This document shows, in pieces, positions 24,438 to 64,000 of a stretch of DNA of 64,000 nucleotides; within the stretch, counting starts at the first letter, position 1, and each line of letters starts with the position of its first letter. Origin of the DNA: Candidatus Gottesmanbacteria bacterium. GTDB taxonomy: Bacteria; Patescibacteriota; Microgenomatia; UBA10105; UBA927. The notes beneath the pieces are model-generated. The model was not told the origin of the DNA. It worked only from the letters and a program-made list of their open reading frames with translations, and ran no database searches. The translations under genes were made by a program, and so were the position numbers. The DNA is taken from the NCBI GenBank assembly GCA_030679255.1, contig JAUXTO010000022.1, positions 128,915 through 192,914 of the forward strand, given 5' to 3'.

Positions 24438-24484
24438 TGCATTGTATCTCCCCACAGAACAAATCTCAATCAGGGTGCGGTTAT

Positions 24485-24790
24485 CTGAAGCGCGAAGCGG
24501 TTCAGGGAGCAACCTCTTCCCTGCCCGCAATGCCCTGCCCGAAGCTGCTGCATCGCTGCAGGCGGGTGCGCATAGCGTTGCAGGCGGGCCACGTGATCAG
24601 GGAGCAACCTCTTCCCACGTAATCGGCACATCTCGCATACTATCCGGCATGGAGATGAGGAGCCGGGGATTGTAGAGGAAGAGTTCCGCGGCGGTCGTGG
24701 TATTTTGAGATATACCCTCGAGGTCGCGCTGCAAGAGGAAGCTCCCGGCGACAAAAATGCCTTGACCCACAAGTCTTTCTTTCCCCACGA
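24485..24790. repeat. GC-rich composite repeat, copy B, with internal 17-18-bp duplication (cagggagcaacctcttcc)
   Basis: See copy A. The short direct repeat cagggagcaacctcttcc flanks the identical core at 24503-24520 and 24597-24614. Confidence 0.85.
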
Positions 24791-26321
24791 CCGTACTCGT
24801 TCCGGTCTGGAAGGTCCCCGTGGGGCTCGTCACATAAACGCCTTCGATTGCTGGAGTGTTCGACGAATACAATCCACCGACGGAGGAGGCAACGGTGATA
24901 TTGCCGTTGACGATGAAGGCAGCAAAGCCCGATCCCGTCAGCGTCACTTTCCCACCAAGGGTGAGATTTCCATTAACAATAACTATAACCGTTTCTCCGT
25001 CGGCGACCGCCCAATCTCCGCTGGTCGTCATATTTCCCACCACATAGTAAGGGGTGGCGCGCGACGCGGGTTTGGCAACGGCTGTGAGATCTGCGAATGC
25101 ATCAGCCGTCGTCCCTCCCCCGAACCGGCGGTAAAAAAGATCATAATAATTTATATTTGCGTAGGCCGCATTGGCAAGTTGATTGGTCGAGGAGACATAG
25201 CTTTCTCCAACCAGGAGCGGACTGGCGTCAAAATCATAGCTTGTGCCGTAGGTGACCAGTCCCGGCGTCCCGCCGGATCCATCGAGCGCAAACGTCCGCG
25301 GACTGACCGACGCCGAAACCGGAGATGTCACGGCCCCCGATCCATACACATTACCGCCTCCGCCGGTTTGCACCCAAGGGCCGGAGAAGGTGTAGCCCAA
25401 TTGCCAGGTGATGGTATCCCCATCCACGGGCACGGAAAGCGTCGTCGAGAGTCCTTCGCCGGAAAGGGCAGCGTTGAGCACCCGACTCCAACACGCACGG
25501 GCCAAGGTGTAATCACTAGCGGCCGTGGGGGAGATCGTGTAGCTCCCGCCGACGATGGGGGAGAAGGATACATAATTATTGCCTGACTGGATTTGCGCCG
25601 TGGGTTGACTCGCCGATCCGGGGGTGAAGGCGTGGCTCGTGCCGGTTAAACCCGTGGTTGATGCCGCGACCGCTGTGCAGGACGTATCAGCAGCCGTAAC
25701 CTGCACGGCTTTGGCCTGGATCGCCCCCACACAATCGATGGTCTGGGTGTAGCCGGTATAGCAATCATACCCCACGGTCCTACTTTTCTTGGCCGGGCTT
25801 GCCGAGCAGACCGACCACGCGCTCACGTACGGCCCACCTTCCGTGCATCCCGGCGCGGGCGTACCGGACGGTGGAGGGGGCGCACTCCCGCCGGTCGGAA
25901 CCGGCGGGGGAGTCGATCCCGGCGGGGGAGTCGTCGTCACCGTTGGCGCCGTAGTCGGCGTCGGCAGCGCCGTCCCGCAATCCCCGGGATTACAATACGT
26001 ACAACAAATTTGTTGGATACAAGGGGCAGGATTCTGAATACAATCTGGTGGATCAGCTACGTATTCCAGTCGATATCCCGGAGTACAGTTTGGCGTGAGA
26101 TAAGGGGCTGTTCCACAATTTAGCCATACTTGTTCTAACTTTTGTCCACAATAATTTTGATTTACACTTGTACAAGATGTGGAGGTTCCTCCGCAGTTTG
26201 CCGAACAAAAATTTTGAGCAGATACGCTTGTCACCAAAAAAACCGAGGCAAAAAAGAAACCGACAATTATCGTGGCAAGCGTTTTAATAAATTTATTTAC
26301 ATCCATAGACAAGTAAAACAT
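24597..26321 (-). CDS. secreted/surface protein with Cys-rich domain, Pro/Thr-rich linker and large C-terminal domain
   Basis: N-terminal TM or signal segment, many paired Cys residues, and the linker PTPTTAPTVTTTPPPGSTPPPVP. The last 60 codons or so are encoded by repeat copy B. Confidence 0.5.
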   Translation of the reverse strand: MFYLSMDVNKFIKTLATIIVGFFFASVFLVTSVSAQNFCSANCGGTSTSCTSVNQNYCGQKLEQVWLNCGTAPYLTPNCTPGYRLEYVADPPDCIQNPAPCIQQICCTYCNPGDCGTALPTPTTAPTVTTTPPPGSTPPPVPTGGSAPPPPSGTPAPGCTEGGPYVSAWSVCSASPAKKSRTVGYDCYTGYTQTIDCVGAIQAKAVQVTAADTSCTAVAASTTGLTGTSHAFTPGSASQPTAQIQSGNNYVSFSPIVGGSYTISPTAASDYTLARACWSRVLNAALSGEGLSTTLSVPVDGDTITWQLGYTFSGPWVQTGGGGNVYGSGAVTSPVSASVSPRTFALDGSGGTPGLVTYGTSYDFDASPLLVGESYVSSTNQLANAAYANINYYDLFYRRFGGGTTADAFADLTAVAKPASRATPYYVVGNMTTSGDWAVADGETVIVIVNGNLTLGGKVTLTGSGFAAFIVNGNITVASSVGGLYSSNTPAIEGVYVTSPTGTFQTGTSTVVGKERLVGQGIFVAGSFLLQRDLEGISQNTTTAAELFLYNPRLLISMPDSMRDVPITWEEVAP

Positions 26322-38242: not shown

Positions 38243-38986
38243 CTATTTTTGCAGTACCCCTAAAGCATTCACCCCATCTATAAACTCCAACATATGGTGA
38301 CCTTTTAGCTCCTTCCAAAATTTCCATACCCCAAACTCACTGTCGTTATATGCGCCCTTGGTGTTGATGTCGTGAAGCGCCATCATTCCTCCATCGGTAA
38401 GTCGCGGCCAAAACAAATTAAAGTCCTTTTTCACCCCCGCATAACTATGGTCTCCGTCTACATATATATAGGTATATTTGCGGTTCGGGTATTTCCTCGC
38501 ATAGTCCACCGACGTCATGACGTAGGTCGTGAGATGGTCTCCTATTCCGAGTACAGAAAAATGTTCCTGTGGATTATTTTTTTTCCAAAACCCGGTACCT
38601 CCCCAATTGCCCGGCTCGCCCGCGTCATACCCCGCGTCCACAAAATCGACGTGGCCGTGGCGGTTGTATTTACACGCCAGCGCACATACCGCAGGGATAA
38701 ATCCCTGCCGGGATCCAATACAGAGCACGCGTTCGGGATTGAGTGTGTTGATAAACCCGGCATGCAAAAATCCAAATCCTAAATTTCCGGTTTTCGTGAT
38801 CGCCCCATGGCCCATGGAGCCGTTAAAATATTTTATGAGATAGGATGTGTTCCCAAAGCGGTATAAATCCGATGTCATTTTTTTCCGCAACATTCCCTTT
38901 TCGACGAACGCATGGTAAGCATCGTATAATCCGAATAGATTTGCCAATCGCTCAATCCGTGAAAATCCTATCTTTCGCAGTTTCAT
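38243..38986 (-). CDS. class I SAM-dependent methyltransferase (TylF/CmcI, Methyltransf_24-like)
   Basis: IYVDGDHSYAGVKKDFNLFWPRLTDGGMMALHD is the signature of the macrocin/CmcI O-methyltransferase family. Confidence 0.65.
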   Translation of the reverse strand: MKLRKIGFSRIERLANLFGLYDAYHAFVEKGMLRKKMTSDLYRFGNTSYLIKYFNGSMGHGAITKTGNLGFGFLHAGFINTLNPERVLCIGSRQGFIPAVCALACKYNRHGHVDFVDAGYDAGEPGNWGGTGFWKKNNPQEHFSVLGIGDHLTTYVMTSVDYARKYPNRKYTYIYVDGDHSYAGVKKDFNLFWPRLTDGGMMALHDINTKGAYNDSEFGVWKFWKELKGHHMLEFIDGVNALGVLQK

Positions 38987-39117
38987 ATTGGAAATGGTTG
39001 CGGTCAGTTGTTCCTGACGAACTCCTGATCTTTGCCGTGTTTGTCCTCTCCCACCTAATCGTTGCCAATTATAAACCATATTCGATAGTAATTATTATCT
39101 ATATCTTGTTTCTGGTA

Positions 39118-40437
39118 ATGGTAACGAAAAGCATAACTTCATCATTGTGGTACGCGACTCTCGGTACCCTATTTTTTTTTAAAGCAAAATATTTCTCCAT
39201 TCCGTTTATTTCTGAGATGGCCGCGGGTGAGGGGCTTACCACGGAAACGCCGTTCGTATACTACATTTCGTTCTCCATGATACTCCTTATCCTCCTCATT
39301 TTTTCTATTCTCCGCGCACGCAAAGGCGCCTCCGTTGTCATGCCGGTATTTGGAGAGTCCGTCCTGCTTGCTGTCTTTCTTGTCATCGGCTCCGTCTCAT
39401 CGGTGCTATCGGCATTTGGCACCATAAGTTGGTTTTCTCTTTTTATCATGTTTGAATATGTACTACTGTTTTACGTCAGCATTATCATGTGTTCAGATAA
39501 AAAAGTTTTCCGGTTGACGATCCGGATGATTATAGCGTTTGTCGCCCTGAACGCGCTTCTTATCGTCCTCCAAAAATTGCGTGGTGGACCAATCGGCATT
39601 ATCCTCGAAGATATCTCATCTGGGGCATTTGGACGATTTCCCACGGAAACGCCCGGGTTCTATCGACCCGGAGGTATCTATTTTGAACCGAATCTTCCCG
39701 CGTCACTTATCAATCTCATACTCCCGGCAGCGTTATATTTTGTTCTGACGCACATAAAGGGATTGGTGGGCGTTGTGCTAAGAATGTCTTTACTAACGTT
39801 ACTCGCCGCGCTTATCGCTACGGGAAGTCGTGCAAATTGGGCAATTGGCGTTATCGCAATGTCGACAACCGCATGGTATTACCGGCAGAAAAATACATTA
39901 TCAACAATATTCACAAACCCACGGTTCATCGTTATGATAGCTATCGTTCTGCTCATGCTCCTTCCCACAATTTTTTCTAGAATCTCTTCAATCCCAATAT
40001 CGTTTACTGGTGATACCGGGGGGTGGCAGTTTCGCTTGCGGCACATAACTATTGCCAAAGATATCATGAGCACAAATATTTTTGGCGTGGGTTTGGATGT
40101 GTTCCAATATCATATTCTTGATCATTATTCGCCTACCTATTATTTCTCCCACTTCACCGCTCCACACAATGTCTTGGCAGAGGCAGGAAGCGCGACGGGC
40201 TTCATCGGGCTTGGAGTATTTATTTCTTTTTTCGTAGTTGTGTTGTATCGTCTCTTTAAAAATTTCAAAGGAGACAATGCTGCCGCATCTGGCATCAATG
40301 CCGCGTTATTGATAGGATATGCTACGTACCTGCTTTCTGCGCAAGTTTATCCATGGCTCTTTACGCCGCCCTTAAGCGAATTGTCCTGGATTATCCTGGG
40401 ATGTCTCTATGCAAAAACCGCAGCAATCAAAAAATAA
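39118..40437 (+). CDS. O-antigen ligase-like polytopic membrane protein (Wzy_C)
   Basis: Many TM helices and the Wzy_C motif TGSRANWAIGVIAMS. The start is uncertain: the longer ORF from 38845 would overlap the divergent methyltransferase gene. Confidence 0.5.
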   Translation: MVTKSITSSLWYATLGTLFFFKAKYFSIPFISEMAAGEGLTTETPFVYYISFSMILLILLIFSILRARKGASVVMPVFGESVLLAVFLVIGSVSSVLSAFGTISWFSLFIMFEYVLLFYVSIIMCSDKKVFRLTIRMIIAFVALNALLIVLQKLRGGPIGIILEDISSGAFGRFPTETPGFYRPGGIYFEPNLPASLINLILPAALYFVLTHIKGLVGVVLRMSLLTLLAALIATGSRANWAIGVIAMSTTAWYYRQKNTLSTIFTNPRFIVMIAIVLLMLLPTIFSRISSIPISFTGDTGGWQFRLRHITIAKDIMSTNIFGVGLDVFQYHILDHYSPTYYFSHFTAPHNVLAEAGSATGFIGLGVFISFFVVVLYRLFKNFKGDNAAASGINAALLIGYATYLLSAQVYPWLFTPPLSELSWIILGCLYAKTAAIKK

Positions 40438-47922: not shown

Positions 47923-50697
47923 TTAAAAATCTGTCCACTGCGCTTTTCCTTGAATGATTTGCGATATTTGTCCATATCTATCTTTCTTGTATGGTGTCCG
48001 CCCTTTAGCATCCTGTAGCCCAAGCGCACAATCCTTGTGACCGGCCGTTCTAACGACAACACATTTTTCAAATGAATCGAGTGCTTTTTTTCCGTTGCCG
48101 GTCGCAAGATAAAAAAACCCTTCCTGTGCCTGCACCCAATAATCGTCCGGCAATAAATACTTCATAGACAAAATAAGGTATTCGGCATCCGTTACCTTGA
48201 TTGCCGCCAACAAATCATCTGCTTTTTTTTGAATCCTCGTCACCAAATCCTTCCTCGTTTCAAAATTAATTTCATCTGGAATTATTATTTTTTTGGCGTA
48301 AACAAAAACTTCCTCCGGTTTCCCGTCTTCAATAAGCCTGTCATTCAACAATACCGCAGCATAGCTCCTGCTCCGGTTTTTCCACGGGCCAGGTTTGGCG
48401 TCCTCTTGGAGAAGGTAGGCGATGAGCGTTGACGTAGGTATGTTTCCCACTCCAGGCGTTTTATACCACGCGGAGATACTCTTCCCAATCCATGGATTCA
48501 TGCTCTCAGCCGAATCCTGAAGTTTTTCCGTCATGGCAAGGTCGTATGAGCTCAATTCGTTTCCGAGCCGCATAATGTGGCGGGAAGCCTTCTCCCTCAG
48601 CCCCCAATCAAGCTCGGGCTGGTCCATGGATAAACCTCTATAAACATCGAGAAGCATCAGCGCCTTTACTTTTGCCTTGTTGGCGTTTCCTTCTTTAAGG
48701 GCCTTCCTTGATTGTTCTAAAAGCATTAATCCTAAACTCATCCAAAATTCATTTCTCCTCCACGGTGCGATCGATCCCAACGAACGAATGTTTTTTTCCA
48801 CCGGTACATAGTTGTCAACATTTACAACATCTACAATCGCGCTATACCAAGCATGAACATACTCCTCTCTGTTTTTACCCAAATAACTACCCGGAACAAC
48901 GCTCAGGGCTTCAAAAAAATTGATCTTCTCTTTAATTGTCGCATGAAAACGTAAAAAAATCGGCTCGTAGCGGTCAAGCGCCCAAGCGTCCTCTTTTTGC
49001 GCCTGTTTATACCACTGTCCTGATTCGGAAAATTTATTTCCCTTGTAATACTCATCACCCAGACGCACCATCGTTTCAGATAACCCCCTTCGCTCTTCAG
49101 CGTCCTTCTCGTGCGCTTGTTTCAGGATAATTATTTGAGCTGCTCTTTCTGTAAGTTTCTTCTCCAATAAATATTGGACCGCAGCAAAAGCCGAGTTCCC
49201 CCACGGATCAATTACGGCCAACGTTTCGCGCGCTTGCTGCTTGGCGGCTTCATCTGTACCGATGGATACGATCCAGGAAAGAATTTCAGGATTTTTGTTA
49301 TGAAAAAACCGTACGACATTTTCCTGTCCAATAATTTCCCTTGCGGTTTTAGCGTCGTAAGGAGCAAGATAAAAAGCGGCGTTTTTATTGTTCAGTGACG
49401 TTGCAATCAATCCCCCGAATGACGATGTATAAAACATCCCCAGCACGATGAGCGCGCCATAGATCATTATGTTTTGCCTTGGGTTTCTATTGCGATCTTT
49501 GTGGCGAGCCAACGTTCCGAGCGTTGCACACAACAAAATCCAAATCGAAGAGTAATCCAAAGAAAATTCATAACTTCCATAGAGAAGCACAAGCAGCGCC
49601 CCGTTCCACAGAACGTTTTTTTGCAACCCGGCCTTAACAATAAAAAATATAAGAATGGAAAAAAGAAACAGGCCTACAAGCCCTGTCTCCGCCGCGGCCT
49701 GCAAAGGAAAACTGTGAGCGAACCACGACCAATTGTCCGGACGCGACTGGAGTCTCCGGGACTCGAGATAAAAAGTCCCGGGACCGCTACCAAACAAGGG
49801 TCGCTCTTTGATCGCCGCCACCGCCTGGCGCCAATACTCCCAACGATTGTCCTCAAATAGTGTTGTTTTTTGTGCTTGACGAGCGAGTTGACCAATCAAC
49901 CCGACGCCGTGCGTTTGCCCCTTTAAAGAGGTTAGTGAGATAACGAGGAGTGCCGTTGCTATTACCACCGCAATAGACAACCCAACTCTTCTCACGATAA
50001 TGGTTTTACTTCGTAGCACAACATAAAAAAGATAAAGAACAAGAAGGACCCACGCCCCGCGGGCAAGGGTAAGTATCATGCCAACGCTAAATAATCCAAG
50101 CTCCCCAATTGCCCAGCTATTTTTTTTCTTTTCAACCAATCCAATCGCCACAGGAAAAACAAAAAGCAACAAGTCCGCTAAATGATTGTGACCATAATTG
50201 GCATACAACAAATTCATGGGCGGCAGCATCCGCGCGAGCGCAGGGAAAAGCAAAAAAACAAAAGATGCAAGCGTGGCGACAACACCAATAAAGAGAAGGC
50301 CCTTAATAAAAAATTCAACAATTTGATTCCCGGAATCTGGGGGCTCTTGATTCCGGGAATCTCGGGCCAAGGTTAAAAACAACACATATACCAAATATCC
50401 CTCAATAAGCCTGATGGTGGCACTTATCGAGTATCCGGCGCTATCGGAAAAGGGGATGAGAATAATGTAGTAAAGGATTAAGGCCATCCATCCAAATCCA
50501 ATCGGGCGGGGGAGGGGGGCAAAATCAAGTTTGCCCCGCTGATAATACCTGGCCCCATACATCGTCAGAATCCCCAGCGCCCACCACACATCGACAAACG
50601 GCTGCTTCCCGTCGCCCAAAAAAAGCGATGTGGTGAGAAAAACAAAAAACACAATCTCCGGACGGGTAATCCAGTGTATCAGGGTTTTTATTGACAT
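47923..50697 (-). CDS. large O-antigen ligase-like membrane protein with C-terminal helical-repeat (TPR-like) domain
   Basis: 924 aa. The N-terminal half is polytopic, with a Wzy_C-like LTLARGAWVLLVLY. The C-terminal half of about 450 aa is soluble and helical. Confidence 0.5.
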   Translation of the reverse strand: MSIKTLIHWITRPEIVFFVFLTTSLFLGDGKQPFVDVWWALGILTMYGARYYQRGKLDFAPLPRPIGFGWMALILYYIILIPFSDSAGYSISATIRLIEGYLVYVLFLTLARDSRNQEPPDSGNQIVEFFIKGLLFIGVVATLASFVFLLFPALARMLPPMNLLYANYGHNHLADLLLFVFPVAIGLVEKKKNSWAIGELGLFSVGMILTLARGAWVLLVLYLFYVVLRSKTIIVRRVGLSIAVVIATALLVISLTSLKGQTHGVGLIGQLARQAQKTTLFEDNRWEYWRQAVAAIKERPLFGSGPGTFYLESRRLQSRPDNWSWFAHSFPLQAAAETGLVGLFLFSILIFFIVKAGLQKNVLWNGALLVLLYGSYEFSLDYSSIWILLCATLGTLARHKDRNRNPRQNIMIYGALIVLGMFYTSSFGGLIATSLNNKNAAFYLAPYDAKTAREIIGQENVVRFFHNKNPEILSWIVSIGTDEAAKQQARETLAVIDPWGNSAFAAVQYLLEKKLTERAAQIIILKQAHEKDAEERRGLSETMVRLGDEYYKGNKFSESGQWYKQAQKEDAWALDRYEPIFLRFHATIKEKINFFEALSVVPGSYLGKNREEYVHAWYSAIVDVVNVDNYVPVEKNIRSLGSIAPWRRNEFWMSLGLMLLEQSRKALKEGNANKAKVKALMLLDVYRGLSMDQPELDWGLREKASRHIMRLGNELSSYDLAMTEKLQDSAESMNPWIGKSISAWYKTPGVGNIPTSTLIAYLLQEDAKPGPWKNRSRSYAAVLLNDRLIEDGKPEEVFVYAKKIIIPDEINFETRKDLVTRIQKKADDLLAAIKVTDAEYLILSMKYLLPDDYWVQAQEGFFYLATGNGKKALDSFEKCVVVRTAGHKDCALGLQDAKGRTPYKKDRYGQISQIIQGKAQWTDF

Positions 50698-54885: not shown

Positions 54886-54904
54886 TGTGGATAAGTTATC
54901 CACC
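54886..54904. promoter_or_regulatory. pair of inverted DnaA boxes upstream of dnaA (TGTGGATAA g TTATCCACc)
   Basis: Read directly; it matches the TTATCCACA consensus with 0-1 mismatches. Confidence 0.7.
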
Positions 54905-54967
54905 TGCTCCCGCCTCTGCCCGCACCGTGTGCTCGTCACATAATTCTATCACGTGTATATCAAGAAT

Positions 54968-56341
54968 ATGGATTTAGAAAAACTCTGGAAAACAACTCTT
55001 GCGGAGATCGAGGTTTCTGTCTCGCGCGTTGCGTTTCACACGCAGTTTAAGGGCTCATCACTCGTGTCGCTTGCCAGTAATGTCGCAACGGTCGGCATTT
55101 CTAATGCTCCCCTCAGGGCGCTTGTCGAATCTCGTTATTATAGTCTCATCAAAAGCATTCTTGACCACCATACAAACGAAAACATCAGTCTGATCTTTGT
55201 GGTGGCCGCCAAGCACGAACGGATGACCGACGAAGATGCCGGGCCGTTATTTTCTTCCCGTGGGGCAGCCGCCTTATCCTCATATGTCACAGGCCCACAG
55301 GACACCGCCCGGAGACTCCATATCCGCGCAGACGCCTCATTTGACAACTTCGCCGTATCCACGACCAACCAACTCGCGTACGCTGCGGCTACCGCCGTTG
55401 CCAAGAGCCCGGGTGGCGCATATAACCCTCTTTTTCTTTATGGAGGCGTCGGGGTGGGGAAGACCCACCTCATGCATGCGGTAGCCAATGCGATCATTGC
55501 TAAAAAGCCTACCGTTAAGCTTGTCTATTGTATGGGCGAGGAGTTTACCAATGAAATCGTCGAGGCCATCCAAAATAAAACCAACCGGCAATTCCGGCAA
55601 AAATACCGGTCCGCGGAGCTTTTTTTGGTCGACGACGTCCAGTTTATCGCCGGTAAGCAGCAAACCCAGGAAGAGTTTTTTCACACCTTCAACGCGCTGC
55701 ACCGCGAGGGAGTACAAATCATCCTAACCAGCGACCGGCCTCCGCCGGAAATTGCCAAGCTTGATGACCGCCTAAGGAGCCGCTTTGAAGGGGGGATGAC
55801 GGTAGATATCGCTCCTCCCAACTTTGAGCTGCGGGTCGCAATTGTCAACATCAAATCAGCGGCGTTGGGAATTAGCGTTCCTTCGGAGGCCGCCCAGCTC
55901 GTCGCGGCCAACCTCACCGACACGCGGGCAATTGAGGGATTTCTGCGTAAACTCACCGCCCCCGGCGTGGGACCGGCGACCCCAGAGTTGGTCGCGTCTC
56001 TCTTAGGATCCAAGGCGGTGGTGGGAAGCGGAGGGATAGCCAAGCACGACAAGCGCGTGCCGGCGGCTGAGGTGCTCGAGGTGGTTGCCGCCTACTACAG
56101 CATTAAATCCACAACCATCAAAAGCCCCAAACGCGACCGCCCCATCTCCCGGCCGAGGCAAATCATTATGTATCTTTGTAAAACCGAGCTGGGCCTCACT
56201 CTTGAGGACATCGGCGGTCTCCTGGGGGGCCGCGATCATACGACCATTATGCACGGCGTCGAAACGATTACCCAAGAGCTCTCGGTCAACGAACGCCTGC
56301 GCTCGGATGTAGAGGGGATAAAAAAGAAACTCTGGGCATAA
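54968..56341 (+). CDS. dnaA: chromosomal replication initiator DnaA
   Basis: AAA+ Walker A GGVGVGKTHL, the sensor and box VII regions, and a C-terminal DNA-binding domain (the HTIMHGV helix). The start is set at MDLEKLWK. Confidence 0.95.
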   Translation: MDLEKLWKTTLAEIEVSVSRVAFHTQFKGSSLVSLASNVATVGISNAPLRALVESRYYSLIKSILDHHTNENISLIFVVAAKHERMTDEDAGPLFSSRGAAALSSYVTGPQDTARRLHIRADASFDNFAVSTTNQLAYAAATAVAKSPGGAYNPLFLYGGVGVGKTHLMHAVANAIIAKKPTVKLVYCMGEEFTNEIVEAIQNKTNRQFRQKYRSAELFLVDDVQFIAGKQQTQEEFFHTFNALHREGVQIILTSDRPPPEIAKLDDRLRSRFEGGMTVDIAPPNFELRVAIVNIKSAALGISVPSEAAQLVAANLTDTRAIEGFLRKLTAPGVGPATPELVASLLGSKAVVGSGGIAKHDKRVPAAEVLEVVAAYYSIKSTTIKSPKRDRPISRPRQIIMYLCKTELGLTLEDIGGLLGGRDHTTIMHGVETITQELSVNERLRSDVEGIKKKLWA

Positions 56342-56360: not shown

Positions 56361-56499
56361 GATATCCACTTTTCCACAATTTGCCCTTTCTTATCCACAA
56401 CGTTATCCACACTTCGCCGTGCTCATTGTTAACAATAAAAGCCCCTCTCTTCTTCTTGTTGTTGACTCCTAAACTAAAAAAACGTACACTTTTCCACGC
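56361..56499. promoter_or_regulatory. DnaA-box cluster in dnaA-dnaN intergenic region (candidate oriC)
   Basis: Five or more 9-mers: atatccact, ttttccaca, ttatccaca (x2, perfect) and ttttccacg. The GGGGGCCCCC palindrome sits directly after the dnaA stop. Confidence 0.6.
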
Positions 56500-56531: not shown

Positions 56532-57644
56532 ATGAAAGTCTCCGTTCTTCAAGAAAACCTTACACAGGCAGTGACGAGGACAAGTAGGGTGATTTCTACG
56601 AAGCCGCCTCTCCCAATTCTTTCTACTATTTTACTACTCGCCACAAAGGATGGTCTCTTGTTGACCGCGTCAACCCTAGAGACAACAGAGTCCGTTTCTG
56701 TGGGGGCAAAGATAGACCGCGAGGGGGGCCTTTGTGTGCCGGCGAAGGTATTTTCAGAGCTTGTTTCCTCTCTTCCTCAAGACACGGTGTTCCTTGAAGA
56801 AAAAGAGGGGTCCTTACGTATATCTTGTGGAGGGATTCGCGCTTCCATCGCAGGAGTCGCAGCGGGAGAGTTTCCCCCCTTAAACAAGAATGAAGGAAAA
56901 AAGGAAACATCGCTTGATAAAGACGCGTTTGTTTCTGTTTTATCTCTTGTGTTATTTGCCGCGTCTACAGACGAAGGAAGACCCCTGTTGACGGGGGTCA
57001 AAATTGTACAAAAGCAAGAAGGCGCCCTTTTTGCTGCGACAGACGGCTACAGACTGTCGGTTTATCGGTCCGGGCTCGCGCTTCCTGCCTCCACCGACGT
57101 CGTGATTCCCGGACGGGCACTTGGGGAAATACTTCGCGTGTGTCAGGAAGAAAAGGAAGTGAAAAAGGTAGTCATTTCGGACGCAGGAGAAGGACAATTG
57201 GTGGCGCGGGTAGGGGACACAACCATCGTGACGCGTAGGATTGAAGGAGAGTACCCTAATTTTGAAAAAATAATACCCGCGAAGCACACCACGGTGGCGA
57301 CAATTGACGTGCAGCAGTTTACAAGGGCGGTCAAGTCTGCATCAATATTTGCCCGCGACAGCGCCAACATTGTCCGTCTTCACGTTGGCAAAAACTCGCT
57401 CACGATTTCCGCCAACGCCCCCCAGGTGGGCGAAAATACCGTAGAGCTGGACGCAAAAACGGAAGGCGAAGAGGGAGACATTGCGTTTAACAGCCGTTTT
57501 TTAGCCGAGCTCCTCAGTAATTTTCCCGGAGAAGAAGTGGTGTTTGAAATGACCGGGTCACTGAACCCCGGCGCGTTCCGAAGTCCCAAAGACTCCTCAT
57601 TTCTCCACATCATCATGCCGGTGAGGGTGTCTGCCGAAGGATAA
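56532..57644 (+). CDS. dnaN: DNA polymerase III beta subunit (sliding clamp)
   Basis: 370 aa with three-domain clamp topology; the N-terminus MKVSVLQENLTQAVTRTSRVIS is typical of DnaN. Confidence 0.9.
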   Translation: MKVSVLQENLTQAVTRTSRVISTKPPLPILSTILLLATKDGLLLTASTLETTESVSVGAKIDREGGLCVPAKVFSELVSSLPQDTVFLEEKEGSLRISCGGIRASIAGVAAGEFPPLNKNEGKKETSLDKDAFVSVLSLVLFAASTDEGRPLLTGVKIVQKQEGALFAATDGYRLSVYRSGLALPASTDVVIPGRALGEILRVCQEEKEVKKVVISDAGEGQLVARVGDTTIVTRRIEGEYPNFEKIIPAKHTTVATIDVQQFTRAVKSASIFARDSANIVRLHVGKNSLTISANAPQVGENTVELDAKTEGEEGDIAFNSRFLAELLSNFPGEEVVFEMTGSLNPGAFRSPKDSSFLHIIMPVRVSAEG

Positions 57645-57651
57645 TGTCCGT

Positions 57652-60036
57652 TTATAAAGAACCACACGCAAGCGTTTCTTTGTACCCGCCGCACCCCGAA
57701 GGTAAAACAAAGGGGGGCTTGGTTCCATCTGCGTTGCGCAGTTCATAATGGAGATGGGGGCCCGAGGAGGCCCCCGTGTTGTCAGAGGCCCCCAAAATCG
57801 TCCGGGCCGGAACAGGACGCGCAGACGTTGACCCCGAACACCGGGGGGCCCCGCCGCAAAGACTTTTTATTGTTGTGCTTACATCGAGAAGGTGGCCATA
57901 TATAGTGAAGTAGAGTTTTCCTGATGAGGGATCAGTGCCGGCAAGAACGACGTAATTTCCATAGTCAGCCCCCCCGTTTTGAGGAATATCAGATACATAT
58001 TCAACGAGGTACCCATAGTGGGTTGAATATATATCCGTTGACATTGGTAAACCAATATCAAACGCGTTGGACCAAGCGTGTGTAAAATAATGAGAATAGT
58101 CGGGCCTATTGTCGTTGGGACACTGTGTAATTGAAGCAAACAAGGTTCGACCTACGGGGCACCCACTTACCGCAGATGCGGGACTGGGGGGGGGACCATT
58201 ATAGATAATTTCATTTTTCCCTTCGATCCCCACACCTCGCCCGGAGAGGTTTTGTCCGGCAGACATAAGGACTGCCGTGATATTGTTTGATTTTATAAAA
58301 CCAAAATTTATAAACGTCGGGAGCACAAAAAGAAGGACAATGGCAACCCCGATAAACACCGCGATCATGAGGGGCGTGTCATCCCAAAAACTGGTTTTTT
58401 GGGTTCTTCTCCCAAACGGCGAAAAGGGAACGCCGCCAAACAAGAGGCCCACGAGACCTCCTCCTGCGCGGCCAGCAACGCCAGCGAGCCCCAACCCCGC
58501 CCATGACAATGCCCCACCGATTGCGCCCCCCAAGCCACCCCCGGAAACGCCAATGTGGGGGATTGCCCCTGATTGCCCCACGAGTTGCGTGGCGGCTGCC
58601 TCCGGCGACACCAAAGAGATGACCATTGTATAAAAGGTTTGCCACGACGGGATTTGTTTGGAAAAAGAAGCGGCTGCGGCGGCCACATTGGCCCCTCCCG
58701 CGGCGCCCGCCCCCGGCCCGCCAGCAAGAGACAGTAATAGCAGTGCAACATTCTCCGCCCGTCCCAGAGCAAGCGCCGGTTGGCCTCCGGGAGTCCTCGC
58801 GTGTATGGCGAGAAGTTCAAAGTAAGCAAGTATCGCCTCCCGTGGATTAGTCAAGAGAGGAGCGGTCACCGGTCCCACGAGGATAGCGCCAATAATATCA
58901 TCAAGGGCGCCCTTAGCCTGTGTTATCCCCGACCCCCCTCTTGGCGCACGGGTAAATTCTTTTTTTGTGCCTTCCATGACGAGTCGAAAGAGCTCACTGT
59001 CAACAAACTCTTTCCCCAGCCTGGTCGTCAGATCGTCGGTTTTGGTAAGCGCCTGTTCAAGAGCCCTGGAAAACGTAGCACGGATGACGTCTTGCCGGGC
59101 CAGAGGAGAAAGTTGGGAAAACAACGCATCGGCGGCCCCCGCGATAAATTTTTGTGCCGGCCCCTCGGCAACGGTGGTAAAAAACTTACCCGACCCACCC
59201 CCGATGTTCCCACGGTCCGCGCGCGGGTCCACGGCGGCTTCGGCCACCCGCGCTAGCACGTCTGCGTGGTCAATTGCGCTGCCCGTGGGAAGGTCAGAGC
59301 GGGTGATAATGTCAGTAACAATCGCCGCAAACCGCTCGATGTTTGGGTTTCCCATCCGGGAGTAGATGGCTTTTGGAATTTCATGCACGGCGGAAAGGGC
59401 GCGCGTGCCGCGGGAAAGCTCTTGTTTTATGTTACCTTCTTCACCGATTGCGTCCCGTATAACGCGTGGCGCGGAGGGTCCCGCGTTGAGTATTGTTTCA
59501 ATAACGCGGCTTGCGTCCGGCCCCGACAACTCCTGGGCCGAAATCCCCTCAAGCTTTTGACGGACAACAACCTCGCTTAAGGACCCCGCACTAATTTCCT
59601 CGCGCGATCGTGCAATCCAGTTGGCCACAAGCCGCTCGATGAATGTTTTACGCAACGCAGCAACGTTTTTTTGTTGCCGCGCCATAGCCCCGGCAACTAT
59701 TTTTTCTGACGCCCGCAAGGAGCTTGCCCGACTGAGGACCTCTTTCGGAGAGAGGGCAGCATCAGGTTTTTCCGCATGAAATTGTGGAGGGGCCCCAGCT
59801 ATTTCCGCCGCCGCACCATGAAGGGCTTGGGTAACCGCATCAACAGAGAGACCACCGTCGTCGCCCGGAGACAGGGTGAGCTTGCCCGCGTTTTGAGTCA
59901 GGGCACGGCGCAACCCCTCATATTGTCCTGCCGCGACTAAAGCCGCCTCGGGCGTAATTCTTCCCGCGCTAAGATCGTCAAGAAGATTATTGATGAATTC
60001 TTTGATTGTTTGTTGTTCCTCTAATTGTTGTGCCAT
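57652..60036 (-). CDS. large membrane protein with C-terminal M23 (LytM-type) peptidase domain
   Basis: About 430 aa of N-terminal helical soluble domain, a Gly/Ala-rich TM cluster, and a C-terminal HLHYE and HxxxD M23 signature (SGPHLHYELR). Confidence 0.6.
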   Translation of the reverse strand: MAQQLEEQQTIKEFINNLLDDLSAGRITPEAALVAAGQYEGLRRALTQNAGKLTLSPGDDGGLSVDAVTQALHGAAAEIAGAPPQFHAEKPDAALSPKEVLSRASSLRASEKIVAGAMARQQKNVAALRKTFIERLVANWIARSREEISAGSLSEVVVRQKLEGISAQELSGPDASRVIETILNAGPSAPRVIRDAIGEEGNIKQELSRGTRALSAVHEIPKAIYSRMGNPNIERFAAIVTDIITRSDLPTGSAIDHADVLARVAEAAVDPRADRGNIGGGSGKFFTTVAEGPAQKFIAGAADALFSQLSPLARQDVIRATFSRALEQALTKTDDLTTRLGKEFVDSELFRLVMEGTKKEFTRAPRGGSGITQAKGALDDIIGAILVGPVTAPLLTNPREAILAYFELLAIHARTPGGQPALALGRAENVALLLLSLAGGPGAGAAGGANVAAAAASFSKQIPSWQTFYTMVISLVSPEAAATQLVGQSGAIPHIGVSGGGLGGAIGGALSWAGLGLAGVAGRAGGGLVGLLFGGVPFSPFGRRTQKTSFWDDTPLMIAVFIGVAIVLLFVLPTFINFGFIKSNNITAVLMSAGQNLSGRGVGIEGKNEIIYNGPPPSPASAVSGCPVGRTLFASITQCPNDNRPDYSHYFTHAWSNAFDIGLPMSTDIYSTHYGYLVEYVSDIPQNGGADYGNYVVLAGTDPSSGKLYFTIYGHLLDVSTTIKSLCGGAPRCSGSTSARPVPARTILGASDNTGASSGPHLHYELRNADGTKPPFVLPSGCGGYKETLACGSL

Positions 60037-60041
60037 GATGG

Positions 60042-63000
60042 TTATTCGCCGTTACCCGCTACGGTTTCGACGGTAAAAAGGGGACGATTAGACGCAGGAA
60101 GTAGCCGTTCCCCATTGATGTTGTGTGGGGAGGTGGGCGCGCTCACCGAGCTTTTGTTTTGTGATTGAGCGATAAGATCTTGGGGCTTCGTGGTGACGAG
60201 CTCGTGCTCTGTGGGGCTTGCGATGATGCGCATGGCCGCGTGAGCAGGTCCGGCAAAAAAGAGCCCTTCCCCGATGTCCGCCGAAAGGAGAAGATGCTTT
60301 TCTCCTTCAGAAAGAAAGAACGCCTCCGCGATGCGGTCGATGGCCGCCGTTGATTGTTTGAGTAACACCTGGAGACTGCTATTTTGGATGATGGCACGGC
60401 CAAGATCCGTGGAGAGAAAATCCTCAACATCTTGAGAGATGGTCGTCACGCCAAGATAATATTTCCGCGCGCGCTTGGCGATAGAGTTCATAAAATATGC
60501 CGAGTCCGGAAACTTCATCATATACCACGCTTCGTCTACAATGAGCAGCCGTCGTTTGAGGTCTCGCCGGACCTTGGTCCAGATGAAGTCTAAAATAAGA
60601 TACATAGCGATGGGGCGGAGCTCCTCTTCGAGGTCCCGAATGGAAAACACCGTGAGGGGATTTCTGATTTCCACATTGGTTTGTTGATCGAATATGCCCA
60701 CGAGGCTTCCTTTGACGAATTTTTCTATCCGGTCAGCCAGGCCGCGCGCCGCAGGCTCTTCCATACCGATGAGAGATTTGTATAAATCTTCCATAAGCGG
60801 AGGCTCCCGGCCTTGTGTTGCCGGGTCAGGGGTAATGCCCCGTTGTTTGTAGGTGAGGATAAGCGCGCGGTCCAAGATTGCATCCTCCGTGGGGGTGAGC
60901 GTTCCCATGACCACCCGGAAGAACCCATGGAGAGAAAGAATTTTTTGGTTAAGCTCGCTTTCGCCGCTTCCGGCGCGAAGAAGCGCGAGATCAAAGGGGT
61001 TAATTTTGGTTTCCGTGCCAAAGTGGAAGCGGATATATTCGCCTCCCAACGCGTGAGTGAGCGCTTGGTATTCGTTTTCCGGATCGATAATGATGACTTC
61101 TGTGTCAAACATGAGGCTCCGCATGGCTTCGAGCTTGACGAAATAACTTTTTCCTCCGCCGGAGTTGTGGACAAACATTCCGCCGTGTCCTGCGAGGAAC
61201 ACGTGGTTGTCTACCGTCAGGTCGTAGACGTAGCGTTCGTTATGTTTGATTTTTTCTTTGCGAACGACCGGATCCCAAAAGAGGTCGGCATCGGCGAGTT
61301 TTTTAAGACCCGCAAGGATTCTTTTTGCGTGCCGAAGTTTAAGTTGGAGCGACCGGTAGCGTTTTTTAAGCACCACGACTGCGTCATAAAGCGTCGCATA
61401 CGAAGCGTCTCCTTGTTTGCGCGCCTCCAGGACCACGCTCGTCCAAAGACTTTTATTATGAGCAAGAAGAGACACGCCCATTTCCTTGAAGCACTCATAG
61501 AGTGTTTGTTTGATGATGTGGGGAGCTACGAAGCGCTCGCCTGTGATGGTTTCGTACGCGCGAAGGACAGTTGTTGTGCGCGGGATTACGGCACCGCGCT
61601 TCATGAGCCGCCAGGTCTGTCCGAGGTTTTTCCACAAGAGCGCATTCAGGCGCTTGTTTGTGTTTCCTCTGCGGATGATTTCTTCAAGCTCTGGAAGCCT
61701 GGAAAGGAGCTGCACGCGTTCTCTAAGTTTTTGTAGATGAGCAATACGTTGTTCTGCGGCGAGAATAATGTTTTTCAATTCCTTGGGAGACGGCTGAAAA
61801 ACGTTTCGGGATAACGGGGAAACATTTATTGGCGCCGCCACACAATCTCCGCAGTACAGCATGTCGTGGAGTTTGCCAATGGTCGGCCCCAGCGTGGGAA
61901 TGGTATTCACGTTCGTGTTTGCGGTTTTCCCCAACAGAGCGTGGAGCGCTTTGGTTTTCCGTTGTGTGAGGAATCCAATTTCGCCTGCAAACGCTTTAAG
62001 CTCGTCCGCGCCTGAGATGGTGAGTTCGTGATATGTGTCACCCGCATGGTTGGAGTTGGTTGCGCGTTTTTGTTTTATGTGCATTCTTCCGATGATGCCA
62101 AAATAAAGAAGTAGGTATGCAATATCAGAGATAAGACGTTTTGATTTTGAGGTACACGATACGACATGCTTTCCAACGGTTCCGTCGCCTTCAAAATATG
62201 CGCATAGATACTGGGCGACACGCACCTTTGGCAAAGTGAATACAATTGGTGGAACTCGCTTCTCCCCCGACTTTCCCCCTGCGCCCATCGCCACGAAAAG
62301 CCGCGCGTATGCGTTGGGCTGGATGTTGTACCCCTTGATTTGGTGATCCTGGTCGTTTCGCGATGCGACAAGGGCGCCAACAGCTGACGCCGCACGCTTT
62401 ATCGTATCAAGTACTACCGGGTCGGTGTTATAAATAGTAAGCACTTTTTCTGTCACAAAGCCTTCCGCCGTGGTTAGCCCCAAAAGCGTGAGGAGCGGCG
62501 TCTCGATGGGTATAGAAGTTGGAAGTGAATCTGGCCATGATGAGGCGAGGAGAGAGCGTGGTTTGATTATGGCTCGGGTGGCACCCCCCCCATGGACGGT
62601 TCGGGGAAGGGGAACGACGTCGCCTCGTCGTATTGTCCGACCGCGCGCCGCTGTCACGCGCCCGTCGCGAAGAGTAATCAAACTATGATCCCCGGTAACC
62701 GTGATCTCTCGACCGCTTCTTGTGGTGAGTTTATAGAGCCTTTCTCGTTTCGAAAACGGTTTTCGAGCTGCTACAGAAACCCGCGTCCATTCGCCGTGAA
62801 GGGCATTATTATACGAGAACACTTCAAGGGCGGGGTCTCTTACGCCCTCAAGGTCTTCGTCCTTATATGTAATGCCGTGTTTTTGGATAAGCGACTCAAC
62901 GATATCCCCGATGATTCCTTTGTGGACGACACCGTTTTCTCGTACAAGCACAGGCTCCCAGCTTGCTACGGACTTCCCAAACACCACCATATTCGCGTTT

Positions 63001-63746
63001 TCTAAGGTAAACCGGTCAAAGATGATGAGACTCCCGTTGTGTTCATTCATGCCATAGAGAACCCCTTCATTTGCGGAAAGTTCAGATGTGGTGAACGGGA
63101 AGGTGGTGGCCAAGGTGGTCGTGTCCATGTTGCGGGTTACCATAATCCGGTCTTGGCCCATAGGGAGGGTGGTTCGGAACCCCTCATCCATGGCAAGCAC
63201 CGCCTTTTTGGTAATGATCAGGAGCGAGCCCAGCGTTGCCTCTACCTGTTTGGTGATTTTATCAAGCTCCGAAAGGGTTTTGGAGGGAATAGTGATATAG
63301 AGTCCAAATTGGAAAAAACGCTCCGCGCCGCGGGCAAGCTCTTGCTGGAGGGAAAGGGCATCTTCGAGGGACACCTGGATGGAGGGCTCGATGACCCTGC
63401 CGCGTTTCATGTCCGATTGTATGGTGGCCTCCATTTCACCGACCTTACGCTTGAGATTCTCGAGAATCTCCTCAGACTTGGTGGGGTAGATATACATGGA
63501 TACATCAAGCGTATGGTTGAAAGAAATGAGCGGCTCAAGCCAGTTGGCGCTGACAAACCGGGGGTAACCCACCACAAAAAGCGTCCGGTGAAATTGGTCG
63601 CCCACCTTGATGTGGTCAAAGTCGACCTCAATCGTTGGTGGGGCAATCATGTCGCGCACCTCAAGCGGGATATTGGGGTCGTGTTCTACGCCCACGTCCT
63701 CCGGCATGGGATTTATGAATTGTTTGATGGCCCTTTGTATGTTCAT
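60042..63746 (-). CDS. VirB4/TrbE-family type IV secretion-like ATPase, intein-containing
   Basis: The Walker A VFGK/SGGGKS is split by an intein, and Walker B LLIVDEAW is present, together with INPFDL and DPENEY regions typical of VirB4. The extein is about 631 aa. Confidence 0.75.
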   Translation of the reverse strand: MNIQRAIKQFINPMPEDVGVEHDPNIPLEVRDMIAPPTIEVDFDHIKVGDQFHRTLFVVGYPRFVSANWLEPLISFNHTLDVSMYIYPTKSEEILENLKRKVGEMEATIQSDMKRGRVIEPSIQVSLEDALSLQQELARGAERFFQFGLYITIPSKTLSELDKITKQVEATLGSLLIITKKAVLAMDEGFRTTLPMGQDRIMVTRNMDTTTLATTFPFTTSELSANEGVLYGMNEHNGSLIIFDRFTLENANMVVFGKSVASWEPVLVRENGVVHKGIIGDIVESLIQKHGITYKDEDLEGVRDPALEVFSYNNALHGEWTRVSVAARKPFSKRERLYKLTTRSGREITVTGDHSLITLRDGRVTAARGRTIRRGDVVPLPRTVHGGGATRAIIKPRSLLASSWPDSLPTSIPIETPLLTLLGLTTAEGFVTEKVLTIYNTDPVVLDTIKRAASAVGALVASRNDQDHQIKGYNIQPNAYARLFVAMGAGGKSGEKRVPPIVFTLPKVRVAQYLCAYFEGDGTVGKHVVSCTSKSKRLISDIAYLLLYFGIIGRMHIKQKRATNSNHAGDTYHELTISGADELKAFAGEIGFLTQRKTKALHALLGKTANTNVNTIPTLGPTIGKLHDMLYCGDCVAAPINVSPLSRNVFQPSPKELKNIILAAEQRIAHLQKLRERVQLLSRLPELEEIIRRGNTNKRLNALLWKNLGQTWRLMKRGAVIPRTTTVLRAYETITGERFVAPHIIKQTLYECFKEMGVSLLAHNKSLWTSVVLEARKQGDASYATLYDAVVVLKKRYRSLQLKLRHAKRILAGLKKLADADLFWDPVVRKEKIKHNERYVYDLTVDNHVFLAGHGGMFVHNSGGGKSYFVKLEAMRSLMFDTEVIIIDPENEYQALTHALGGEYIRFHFGTETKINPFDLALLRAGSGESELNQKILSLHGFFRVVMGTLTPTEDAILDRALILTYKQRGITPDPATQGREPPLMEDLYKSLIGMEEPAARGLADRIEKFVKGSLVGIFDQQTNVEIRNPLTVFSIRDLEEELRPIAMYLILDFIWTKVRRDLKRRLLIVDEAWYMMKFPDSAYFMNSIAKRARKYYLGVTTISQDVEDFLSTDLGRAIIQNSSLQVLLKQSTAAIDRIAEAFFLSEGEKHLLLSADIGEGLFFAGPAHAAMRIIASPTEHELVTTKPQDLIAQSQNKSSVSAPTSPHNINGERLLPASNRPLFTVETVAGNGE
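61164..62972 (-). mobile_element. 603-aa intein with LAGLIDADG homing-endonuclease domain inserted in the VirB4-like P-loop
   Basis: Block A begins with Ser (SVASWEPVLV), block B is TVTGDHSL, the LAGLIDADG motifs are LLGLTTAEGFV and YLCAYFEGDGTV, and the C-terminus is VYDLTVDNHVFLAGHGGMFVHN followed by +1 Ser. Splicing would restore GKSGGGKS. Confidence 0.8.
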
Positions 63747-63946
63747 GGTTGTTCCGGCGTTTTGTTTTCGATTGGTAGTATTTGTTGATTGGTAGTATTT
63801 GTCGGATTGAAGTGCTCCGGCTGCGGTATGCCGGGATTATAGACGGAAAAAAACAATCGCGCGAGTTGATCGCTGGTCAGCTGTTTTCCGCGCAGCCCAA
63901 TGCGCGTCAAGAGCCGCAAAACATGATCCCTTTTTGGTGTAAGCAC
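63743..63946 (-). CDS. small hypothetical ORF upstream of the VirB4-like gene, containing TTGGTAGTATT repeats
   Basis: 67 aa with a 4-nt overlap onto the VirB4-like start. It encodes NTTNQQILPIENKT from two tandem repeat units (63770-63806). Confidence 0.25.
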   Translation of the reverse strand: MLTPKRDHVLRLLTRIGLRGKQLTSDQLARLFFSVYNPGIPQPEHFNPTNTTNQQILPIENKTPEQP

Positions 63947-64000
63947 GGTTAATGCTTTTTCATAAATATATTCTTTATCATAGGGGAGACCGCGTTTTTT

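Follow-up and report, generated by a model that had tools for sequence, protein, structure and literature searches.

The DNA analysed here, a 64,000-nucleotide stretch of a Candidatus Gottesmanbacteria genome (contig JAUXTO010000022.1; hereafter, the window), carries at bases 57652-64000 the last genes of a chromosomal type IV secretion system (T4SS) operon of the Gram-positive type (MPF-FATA), whose promoter-distal end converges on dnaN. Its two complete genes are open reading frames (ORFs) of 794 amino acids (aa; 57652-60036) and 1,234 aa (60042-63746), which lie on the minus strand with 5 nt between them. Profile matches identify the longer product as a VirB4 ATPase and place an M23 peptidase domain in the shorter one, in agreement with a preliminary description of the sequence, which had paired a VirB4-like ATPase with a 794-aa membrane protein. 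That description overlooked an intein, which sits in the Walker A motif of VirB4. We consider it probable that the locus is a vertically inherited chromosomal monoderm T4SS operon (MPF-FATA, pCF10/CD1110-like), which is kept beside the replication origin (oriC) in Microgenomatia-type Patescibacteria, and that the M23 protein is its wall hydrolase. The operon is represented in the window by the following genes:

63743..64000, minus strand: 3' end (last 85 codons and stop) of a TraC/TrsD-like small T4SS gene, truncated by the window edge
60042..63746, minus strand: virB4 precursor gene, 1,234 aa, for a CD1110-family VirB4 ATPase with an intein
57652..60036, minus strand: gene for the predicted bitopic cell-wall hydrolase of 794 aa that is associated with the T4SS; it follows virB4 after 5 nt, in the PrgK/VirB1 slot

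A secretion operon conserved beside dnaN and dnaA

The 1,234-aa protein matches the CD1110-family VirB4 profile NF045971 with 367.3 bits (cut-off, 325), the intein notwithstanding, and contains P-loop_TraG, AAA_10, and DUF87 domains. Its exteins are 88-92% identical to intein-free VirB4 orthologues of 617-621 aa from two syntenic loci, L001 and L003. Moreover, its relatives in the best 120 clusters are 74-100% identical, and 7,997 proteins match at E <= 1e-100, an extreme conservation that argues for an essential, vertically inherited machine.

Immediately upstream of virB4, a third frame remains open through base 64000, and its stop overlaps the virB4 start codon (ATGA). The truncated frame is 69% identical to the C-terminal third of the 228-233-aa genes that directly precede virB4 in L001 and L003. 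A 67-aa ORF previously listed at 63743-63946 is therefore a real frame, but it is the 3' end of this TraC/TrsD-like third gene and not a separate gene. Precomputed Pfam matches to the TraC-like family PF26593 are weak in L001 and L011 and firm in L013; our own Pfam scan, with a copy that apparently lacks this model, did not reproduce them. An hhalign comparison of the TraC-like with the VirB4 alignment, aimed at the reported remote homology between TrsD and the VirB4 N terminus, gave a nonsignificant probability of 0.9% from shallow alignments, with PF[ST][ST]xEL as the sole aligned part.

The relatives' loci come from another Gottesmanbacteria metagenome-assembled genome (MAG; L001), a 'Patescibacteria group' MAG (L003, L004, and L008), and a MAG labelled Gammaproteobacteria (L007). 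In the more distant loci, L010 and L011/L012, the hydrolase is ~24% identical to that of the window, and the whole set of syntenic relatives covers 24-57%. Wherever the contig extends far enough, the gene order is the same, namely a divergent VirD4-like gene, a PrgI-like gene (427-480 aa), a TraC-like gene (~215-233 aa), virB4, the gene for a hydrolase of ~720-800 aa, dnaN, and dnaA. The operon, of which the window holds >6 kb, occupies ~9 kb in these relatives. The hydrolase gene lies directly downstream of virB4 in all loci examined where virB4 is seen; at the junctions with a whole virB4 (L001, L003/L004, L007, L009, and L011/L012), the two genes are separated by 2-5 nt or overlap by 4 nt. 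L010 is a short locus, where the gene upstream of the hydrolase is truncated at the contig end and has no assigned identity.

Profile searches support the identities of the upstream genes. The PrgI (VirB3-like) Pfam family scores 28.9-33.9 bits in L001, L003, L007, and L013 (gathering score, 27). The gene next to it, which is adjacent and divergent in all long relatives, encodes a VirD4-type coupling protein (T4CP) in L001 and L007, with 33.8-34.7 bits for TrwB_AAD_bind (cut-off, 20.5) and 30.5-30.8 bits for TraG-D_C (cut-off, 22). The preliminary description had proposed a T4SS-like apparatus and had suggested a search for further T4SS genes upstream together with a comparison of gene order; such genes are indeed present in the syntenic relatives, as TraC/TrsD-like, PrgI/VirB3-like, and VirD4 genes, and bear this proposal out. 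The M23 protein encoded 5 nt downstream of virB4 is the candidate for a dedicated wall hydrolase, the VirB1 role. A VirB2-like pilin array is missing from the 10 kb inspected in the relatives.

These loci hold some further genes. A conserved protein of ~1,150 aa, acidic and devoid of Cys, is encoded next to virD4 (L003, 5-3448; L001, 1-3149; both on the minus strand). It has a single hydrophobic tail at its C terminus, has no Pfam match, and could represent a further unrecognised component or a substrate. L011 (10407-11396) and L010 (2887-3882) have an extra ORF of ~330 aa between the hydrolase gene and dnaN that is not in the window; it carries an N-terminal transmembrane (TM) or signal segment and has no Pfam match. 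L007 (CAZLDC010000001.1), labelled 'uncultured Gammaproteobacteria bacterium', contains a Gottesmanbacteria-type cluster that shares the intein and the dnaN-dnaA synteny of the window, and this MAG is probably mis-binned or mislabelled.

On its promoter-distal side, the operon meets the replication region:

56532..57644, plus strand: dnaN, with three DNA_pol3_beta domains
56370..56411, plus strand: DnaA-box cluster in the dnaA-dnaN spacer, with two perfect TTATCCACA and one copy with a single mismatch; probable oriC core
54953..56341, plus strand: dnaA (Bac_DnaA, 213.7 bits; Bac_DnaA_C)
54886..54904, no strand assigned: second, inverted DnaA-box pair just upstream of dnaA, from the box scan

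The window has four perfect DnaA boxes, three of which flank dnaA (54886, 56391, and 56403), and near-perfect boxes are found at 54896 and 56370; box-like sites number 29 in the window, against 15 ± 3.7 expected. The cumulative GC skew reaches its minimum at ~56.3-56.9 kb, which, together with the boxes flanking dnaA, confirms the suggested adjacency to oriC. The stops of dnaN and of the 794-aa gene converge 7 bp apart, and a terminator scan found no terminator-like hairpin at this junction. This placement by dnaN had been called unusual, but it is kept across the clade and has been published for Microgenomatia and Paceibacteria, where frequent proximity to dnaA/dnaN was read as a gene-dosage effect (PMC12102498). 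The operon runs toward oriC (~56.4 kb), hence head-on to the rightward fork, an arrangement kept in all relatives examined.

The T4SS itself and its position by dnaA/dnaN are already described. Quinonero-Coronel et al. 2025 (PMC12102498), whose set comprises 2,474 Patescibacteria virB4 genes, reported a monophyletic Patescibacteria VirB4 clade related to MPF-FATA, in which TrsD and PrgI homologues adjoin virB4, a relaxase is mostly missing, and, in Microgenomatia, VirB6 is scarce and VirB1 is rarely near virB4. They also noted that, in S. epibionticum, virB4 is immediately followed by peptidase and lysozyme genes that are essential, and they judged the system co-opted. Epibiotic growth of Southlakia epibionticum requires the T4SS (Wang et al. 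2023, PMC10633639; PMC12857230); before the Patescibacteria system, no T4SS had been shown to be essential for its carrier, and the role of this system is regarded as open (PMC11665869, PMC12857230). Our locus shares with the published systems (i) a monoderm VirB4 with TrsD-like and PrgI/VirB3-like neighbours, (ii) the lack of a detected relaxase, (iii) a chromosomal site near dnaA/dnaN, (iv) an elusive Microgenomatia VirB6, and (v) a peptidase just downstream of virB4. It departs from the typical arrangement in that the T4CP gene is next to virB4 in the relatives and in that the VirB2-like array is missing within 10 kb. The main text of PMC12102498 has no word match for 'intein' or 'M23', names Peptidase_M23 once as an extra domain of some VirB1 homologues, and does not mention the ~800-aa family.

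We also considered a recently integrated or decaying integrative and conjugative element (ICE) in place of a domesticated chromosomal system. Among named families, the closest are those of conjugation proteins from Firmicutes elements (CD1110 VirB4, PrgI, and VirD4/TraG), a mobile intein with a homing endonuclease is present, and the GC content of 0.51-0.56 is somewhat above the window average of ~0.46. However, the dnaN-dnaA position is kept while the hydrolase diverges to 24% identity, VirB4 is strongly conserved across thousands of proteins, and the literature judges the system co-opted (PMC12102498). Further, Pfam scans (precomputed matches and our own scan of several proteins) detected no relaxase domain among the genes within ~10 kb in L001, L003, and L011, and the same scans showed no integrase domain among the relatives' genes within that distance. 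An ICE origin is, in our estimate, highly improbable.

An intein in the Walker A motif of VirB4

The unusual length of VirB4 (1,234 aa) is due to a 603-aa intein, and the precursor divides as follows:

62973..63746, minus strand: VirB4 N-extein, aa 1-258, ending in ...NMVVFGK, the first two Walker A residues (alignment and DNA junction)
61164..62972, minus strand: intein, VirB4 aa 259-861, 603 aa (Pfam Intein_splicing, 61.9 bits; TIGR01445; TIGR01443)
61974..62216, minus strand: LAGLIDADG homing-endonuclease core, VirB4 aa 511-591 (Pfam LAGLIDADG_3, 59.7 bits; cut-off, 22.5)
60042..61163, minus strand: VirB4 C-extein, aa 862-1234 and stop, starting with SGGGKSYFV, the rest of Walker A, and containing the TraG-type P-loop ATPase domain

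In the alignment to the L001 and L003 orthologues, the insertion is one clean 603-residue block, Ser259-Asn861, which is followed by Ser862 and splits the Walker A motif between G257-K258 and S862-G-G-G-K-S867. The intein-free VirB4 proteins of L001 and L003 read ...FGK-SGSGKS..., with no gap or additional residue, and their empty site reads ...TTTGGAAAAAGCGGATCCGGAAAATCG... in the DNA. The splicing motifs are intact (Ser1; block B TGDH at intein positions 93-96; block F YVYDLTV; C-terminal VHN; and Ser+1), as are both LAGLIDADG motifs, LLGLTTAEG and YFEGDG, with their acidic catalytic residues. The element thus has the sequence hallmarks of a class 1 intein, namely an N-terminal nucleophile, a block B TxxH, a His-Asn end, and a Ser, Thr, or Cys at position +1. 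Its closest solved relatives in the PDB are PI-PkoII (7.8e-21) and the TFIIB, CDC21, and VMA inteins.

The same intein occupies the same site in L007 and L009, where it is 57-58% identical and the exteins are 85-88% identical, whereas none of the 120 closest VirB4 clusters contains one. A database search with the intein alone returned six relatives. Two of these, the VirB4 proteins P0163 (that is, L013) and P0164 (from an Andersenbacteria MAG), carry a homologous intein (34-38% identity) at another site, FAKSGSGK/S…VHN/SYFCKLE (slashes mark the junctions), which is the second GK/S of the same P-loop, five codons downstream (site b). The occupation of two GK/S sites in different candidate phyla radiation (CPR) lineages, as read from these sequences, suggests ectopic movement of the intein between adjacent, similar sites. 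In L013 (1136-4938), a frameshift in a poly-A run of intein block F (~3815-3850) breaks the site-b virB4 into separately called genes of 910 and 343 aa; this could be a homopolymer assembly error or genuine decay. The intein-bearing VirB4 of the present genome, for its part, gave no self-match in protein database searches, whereas the neighbouring 794-aa protein did; the source annotation may have recorded the long virB4 in another way, such as a pseudogene or a split gene.

The catalogue of Novikova et al. 2016 (PMC4760082) contains five inteins in VirB4 (COG3451), from Firmicutes and Proteobacteria. Like these, and like other P-loop inteins (PI-PkoII; VMA, CDC21, and DnaB), the present element combines a Hint domain with a two-motif LAGLIDADG endonuclease and interrupts a conserved ATPase motif, the +1 nucleophile being Ser. 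It differs from them in that its host is a chromosomal, probably essential CPR T4SS ATPase and in that residue 1 is Ser and not Cys; moreover, its homologues occupy two GK/S sites, five codons apart, of the same Walker A motif. Our literature search found no report of inteins in CPR secretion systems, no description of an intein in the Walker A motif of a T4SS motor, and none of two such neighbouring insertion sites.

A predicted bitopic hydrolase in the PrgK/VirB1 slot

The 794-aa protein is composed of four parts:

58567..60036, minus strand: N-terminal all-helical domain, aa 1-~490, predicted cytoplasmic
58396..58566, minus strand: Gly/Ala-rich, weakly hydrophobic segment with GxxxG-type repeats, aa ~491-547 (low-confidence model)
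58297..58380, minus strand: the one strong TM helix, aa ~553-580, preceded by RR..K
57682..58209, minus strand: M23 (LytM-type) metallopeptidase domain, aa ~610-785, predicted extracytoplasmic (Pfam, PDB, and Foldseek)

For structural comparisons, we used an AlphaFold2 model built from 49 family sequences (mean predicted local distance difference test [pLDDT] 80; predicted TM-score 0.63); an earlier 12-sequence model (pLDDT 57) gave a fold search that was informative for M23 only. The model reproduces the long helical N-terminal domain proposed from the sequence (pLDDT mostly 85-97 over aa 10-490) and has a β-rich C-terminal domain. The N-terminal domain has no Pfam, NCBIfam, or PHROG match and no significant Foldseek match in the PDB. 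The preliminary description had also named a Gly/Ala-rich TM cluster. The Gly/Ala-rich stretch is real (40% Gly plus Ala over aa 431-550, with a Kyte-Doolittle [KD] hydropathy of 1.4-1.5 there, and pLDDT <50 at aa 489-547), but there is no cluster of TM segments: only one segment, aa 548-584, exceeds KD 1.6, with a maximum of 2.92, and the same TM feature is found in the L003 and L011 orthologues. No signal peptide is found in the protein, and Cys is absent from aa 1-585, all six residues lying in the C-terminal domain. From these features, N-in/C-out is predicted as the most economical topology.

The C-terminal M23 domain, as proposed earlier, is supported on several sides. Although the M23 profile PF01551 is marginal in the 794-aa protein by itself (29.9 bits; gathering score, 28.7), it is present in 40 of the 49 family members (best E, 3.6e-19), and PDB sequence matches agree. 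Against the PDB, Foldseek aligned the M23 part with probability 1.0 to Csd2, ShyA, and LytM, as well as to Csd1, lysostaphin, and EnpA. The putative zinc and catalytic motifs are H653-x6-D660, H715, and H761-L-H763; D660, H715, and H761-x-H763 are kept in 41-43 of the 49 members and H653 in 32. The enzymatic domain thus has an M23 endopeptidase fold, whose activity is predicted from sequence and model, and the lytic-transglycosylase-like part that had been suggested did not materialise.

An exhaustive profile search gives the family 196 cluster representatives at E <= 1e-10, of which 68 reach E <= 1e-30, and most are 700-830 aa long. The 794-aa protein is identical to an NCBI entry from a Candidatus Gottesmanbacteria MAG, and its close relatives are only 11 others among 5.8 billion clustered proteins. 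A pattern-based scan of GTDB species genomes returned three loci only and under-reports the family by comparison. Within it, the C-terminal enzyme is exchanged. P0007, P0008, P0012 (L003, 10001-12391), and similar members carry an HExxH domain (LAHELAHNID; weakly similar to DUF2268/M57/M48), which forms the C-terminal ~150 aa in the three named proteins, two of the 49 have a C39-like module, and one has CHAP. The N-terminal domain and the gene position stay constant despite these swaps, and the swapping fits the behaviour expected of a modular wall hydrolase. We found no description of this ~800-aa family, with its large domain of no known fold and its exchangeable hydrolase module.

The closest counterpart by position is PrgK of Enterococcus faecalis pCF10, where the order is PrgH (VirB6), PrgI (VirB3), PrgJ (VirB4, CD1110 family), and PrgK. 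PrgK, too, follows directly a CD1110-family VirB4, is of similar size (871 versus 794 aa), and is bitopic with external hydrolase domains, namely lysozyme and CHAP, the latter shared with the one CHAP-bearing member of our family. The two proteins differ in that the N-terminal domain here is unrelated to and twice as long as the N-terminal cytoplasmic part of PrgK (~245 aa, followed by one TM helix) and in that a single M23 domain replaces lysozyme/SLT and CHAP. CHAP is absent from the 794-aa protein, and no lysozyme domain appears among the top-25 matches listed for the 49 members scanned. As sequence homology to PrgK is not detected, the VirB1/PrgK role rests on position, architecture, and enzymology; by analogy, the 794-aa protein would work like a PrgK/VirB1-class hydrolase, without being filed as a member of that family. 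Other VirB1-class hydrolases of Gram-positive systems include TcpG, CwlT, and TraG of pIP501.

The preliminary description had instead envisaged a composite with VirB6/TrbL; on such a reading, a channel subunit fused to a wall hydrolase would provide pore and wall breach in one. VirB6/TrbL proteins (PF04610), including PrgH, are likewise membrane proteins encoded in T4SS operons and have Gly-rich hydrophobic segments. The 794-aa protein is a fixed operon member, no polytopic VirB6 candidate is found in the conserved cluster, and VirB6 homologues are scarce in Microgenomatia (PMC12102498); further, the conserved ~100-aa Gly/Ala-rich, GxxxG-type stretch before the TM helix could oligomerise in the membrane. 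However, none of the 49 family members matches TrbL even at E <= 1, whereas PrgH, the positive control (the VirB6-like protein of pCF10), does so with 29.2 bits. PrgH, moreover, has five or more hydrophobic or TM segments above the threshold that only one segment of our protein exceeds. Foldseek of the pLDDT-80 model against the PDB retrieved neither VirB6 nor another T4SS subunit, its matches at E <= 0.001 being only M23 enzymes and one weak phage protein, although the poor modelling of the Gly-rich aa 489-547 limits this comparison. An hhalign run of the family profile against PrgH was likewise empty, which is a weak test with a single-sequence template; the Pfam TrbL search with its PrgH control is the stronger one. 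The composite was therefore not borne out, and we regard it as quite improbable. As homology, the VirB6 idea is unsupported, and we leave it as functional speculation, which survives on two grounds: no other VirB6 candidate is present in the cluster, and the Gly-rich segment shows conservation.

A different target for the enzyme, namely the host peptidoglycan at the contact between epibiont and host, was weighed as well. In such a case, the protein would act like a phage tape-measure or ejection protein, and its best whole-length Foldseek matches are in fact phage tape-measure and 'Peptidase M23' proteins between 750 and 1,050 aa long (best E, 4.8e-7), with a cyanophage pre-ejectosome protein also matched. 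The epibiotic lifestyle (PMC11665869), the fast evolution of the hydrolase (24-57% identity, versus 74-92% for VirB4), and the swapping of its enzymatic domain among orthologues, as expected for adaptation to different hosts, would all agree with this role. On the other hand, the long matches have TM-scores of only 0.10-0.16, the sequence-level phage matches are restricted to M23, and the strong TM anchor and large cytoplasmic domain suggest retention in the membrane of the producer. A host-directed enzyme therefore appears unlikely to us, although a role at the own wall and one at the host wall could coexist. With phage tape-measure and ejection proteins (e.g., the cyanophage A4 pre-ejectosome, PDB 9k2v), the 794-aa protein shares the long helical body, the Gly-rich hydrophobic segments, and a terminal M23 domain. 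With TM-scores of ~0.10-0.16 and PHROG matches to M23 only, we rejected homology and keep the likeness as one of layout.

Lastly, the M23 protein might be a housekeeping endopeptidase of cell division or wall remodelling that adjoins virB4 by coincidence, which was the fallback offered in the preliminary description. NCBIfam matches of the family are to MepM, ShyA, DipM, NlpD, and EnvC-type enzymes, a weak Foldseek match to EnvC-FtsX was obtained (E, 0.16-0.27), and NCBI names the protein just 'M23 family metallopeptidase'. All such matches cover M23 only, however, whereas the N-terminal domain (490 aa) has no relation to any protein of cell division; orthologues with other hydrolase types keep this domain and the position; and the adjacency to virB4, with 2-5-nt spacing or overlapping codons, is kept to ~24% identity. 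We accord a coincidental pairing hardly any probability and rejected it, as we did the ICE, on the depth of the synteny.

Proposed mechanism and remaining features of the window

The reading that we prefer, a monoderm T4SS operon with its own wall hydrolase, suggests the following course of events. VirB4 would be made as a 1,234-aa precursor with a split Walker A motif (G-K/intein/S-G-G-G-K-S), and the intein would excise itself and join the VirB4 halves before the ATPase could bind nucleotide, while its LAGLIDADG endonuclease, which is intact, may carry it into alleles that lack it. With the PrgI/VirB3-like protein keeping it at the membrane, mature VirB4 would power the channel, and VirD4 would feed substrates to it. 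The 794-aa protein would serve as the dedicated wall hydrolase (the PrgK/VirB1 role), its cytoplasmic helical domain probably docking to the ATPase complex and its TM helix, perhaps with the Gly-rich segment, anchoring it. The external M23 endopeptidase would then cut peptidoglycan cross-links locally, so that the channel could cross the wall. Because no relaxase was detected nearby, we propose that the cargo passing between epibiont and host is probably proteins or other substrates, rather than conjugated DNA.

Several points weigh against this reading. The first zinc motif of the M23 domain is H-x6-D and not the canonical HxxxD, as its His is at -7 from the Asp and not at -4; some LytM domains, reportedly including that of PrgK, are catalytically dead. 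Homology to PrgK is not detectable (hhalign probability of 0.8%, a weak test with a single-sequence template). The 10-kb cluster has no polytopic VirB6 candidate (in L003, at most one or two hydrophobic segments per protein and no TrbL), and without one, the composition of the channel as understood here is incomplete. In the present genome, the upstream PrgI, TraC, and VirD4 genes lie beyond base 64000 and are inferred from synteny; splicing activity, docking, the peptidase substrate (own or host wall), and the cargo are inferred as well. Finally, a T4CP gene adjacent to virB4 is a minority arrangement in Patescibacteria (148 of 5,713; PMC12102498), such that generalising from other classes may fail.

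A more far-reaching version, which we hold to be rather unlikely, would have the T4SS of Gottesmanbacteria-type Microgenomatia run with no VirB6 of the classical kind. An undescribed core subunit would be supplied by the ~800-aa family: its cytoplasmic domain, of a new fold, would engage VirB4/VirD4, its Gly-zipper-like segment and TM helix would oligomerise to form the conduit, and its exchangeable outer enzyme (M23, HExxH, CHAP, or C39-like) would be matched to the wall to be opened. The motor of this probably essential machine would, moreover, be gated post-translationally by an intein in its Walker A motif that has moved between the two GK/S sites.

The overall picture in the literature is unchanged by these results, and their value is incremental. 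A conserved ~800-aa protein that fills the hydrolase slot in Microgenomatia is a concrete candidate for work on structure and interactions. A secretion ATPase that is probably essential and would be made as an inactive, splicing-dependent precursor may provide a natural handle for conditional splicing, and the two neighbouring insertion sites represent a compact case of inteins reaching new sites.

Scans of the whole window for tRNA and Rfam RNAs found none. A local GC peak at 24000-26000 (0.56, versus ~0.46) overlaps a 574-aa ORF (24597-26321, minus strand) that has no Pfam match, nor has its neighbour, a 714-aa ORF (26941-29085, minus strand). The region left of dnaA holds no further secretion genes and is mostly devoted to surface-polysaccharide functions. 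Its genes (12794-14224, 38845-40437, 47923-50697, and neighbours) include three Wzy_C/O-antigen-ligase-like paralogues, one of which, of 924 aa, has a long C-terminal extension with a weak TPR hint only, as well as a flippase, glycosyltransferases, and sulfatase and phosphodiesterase-family enzymes.

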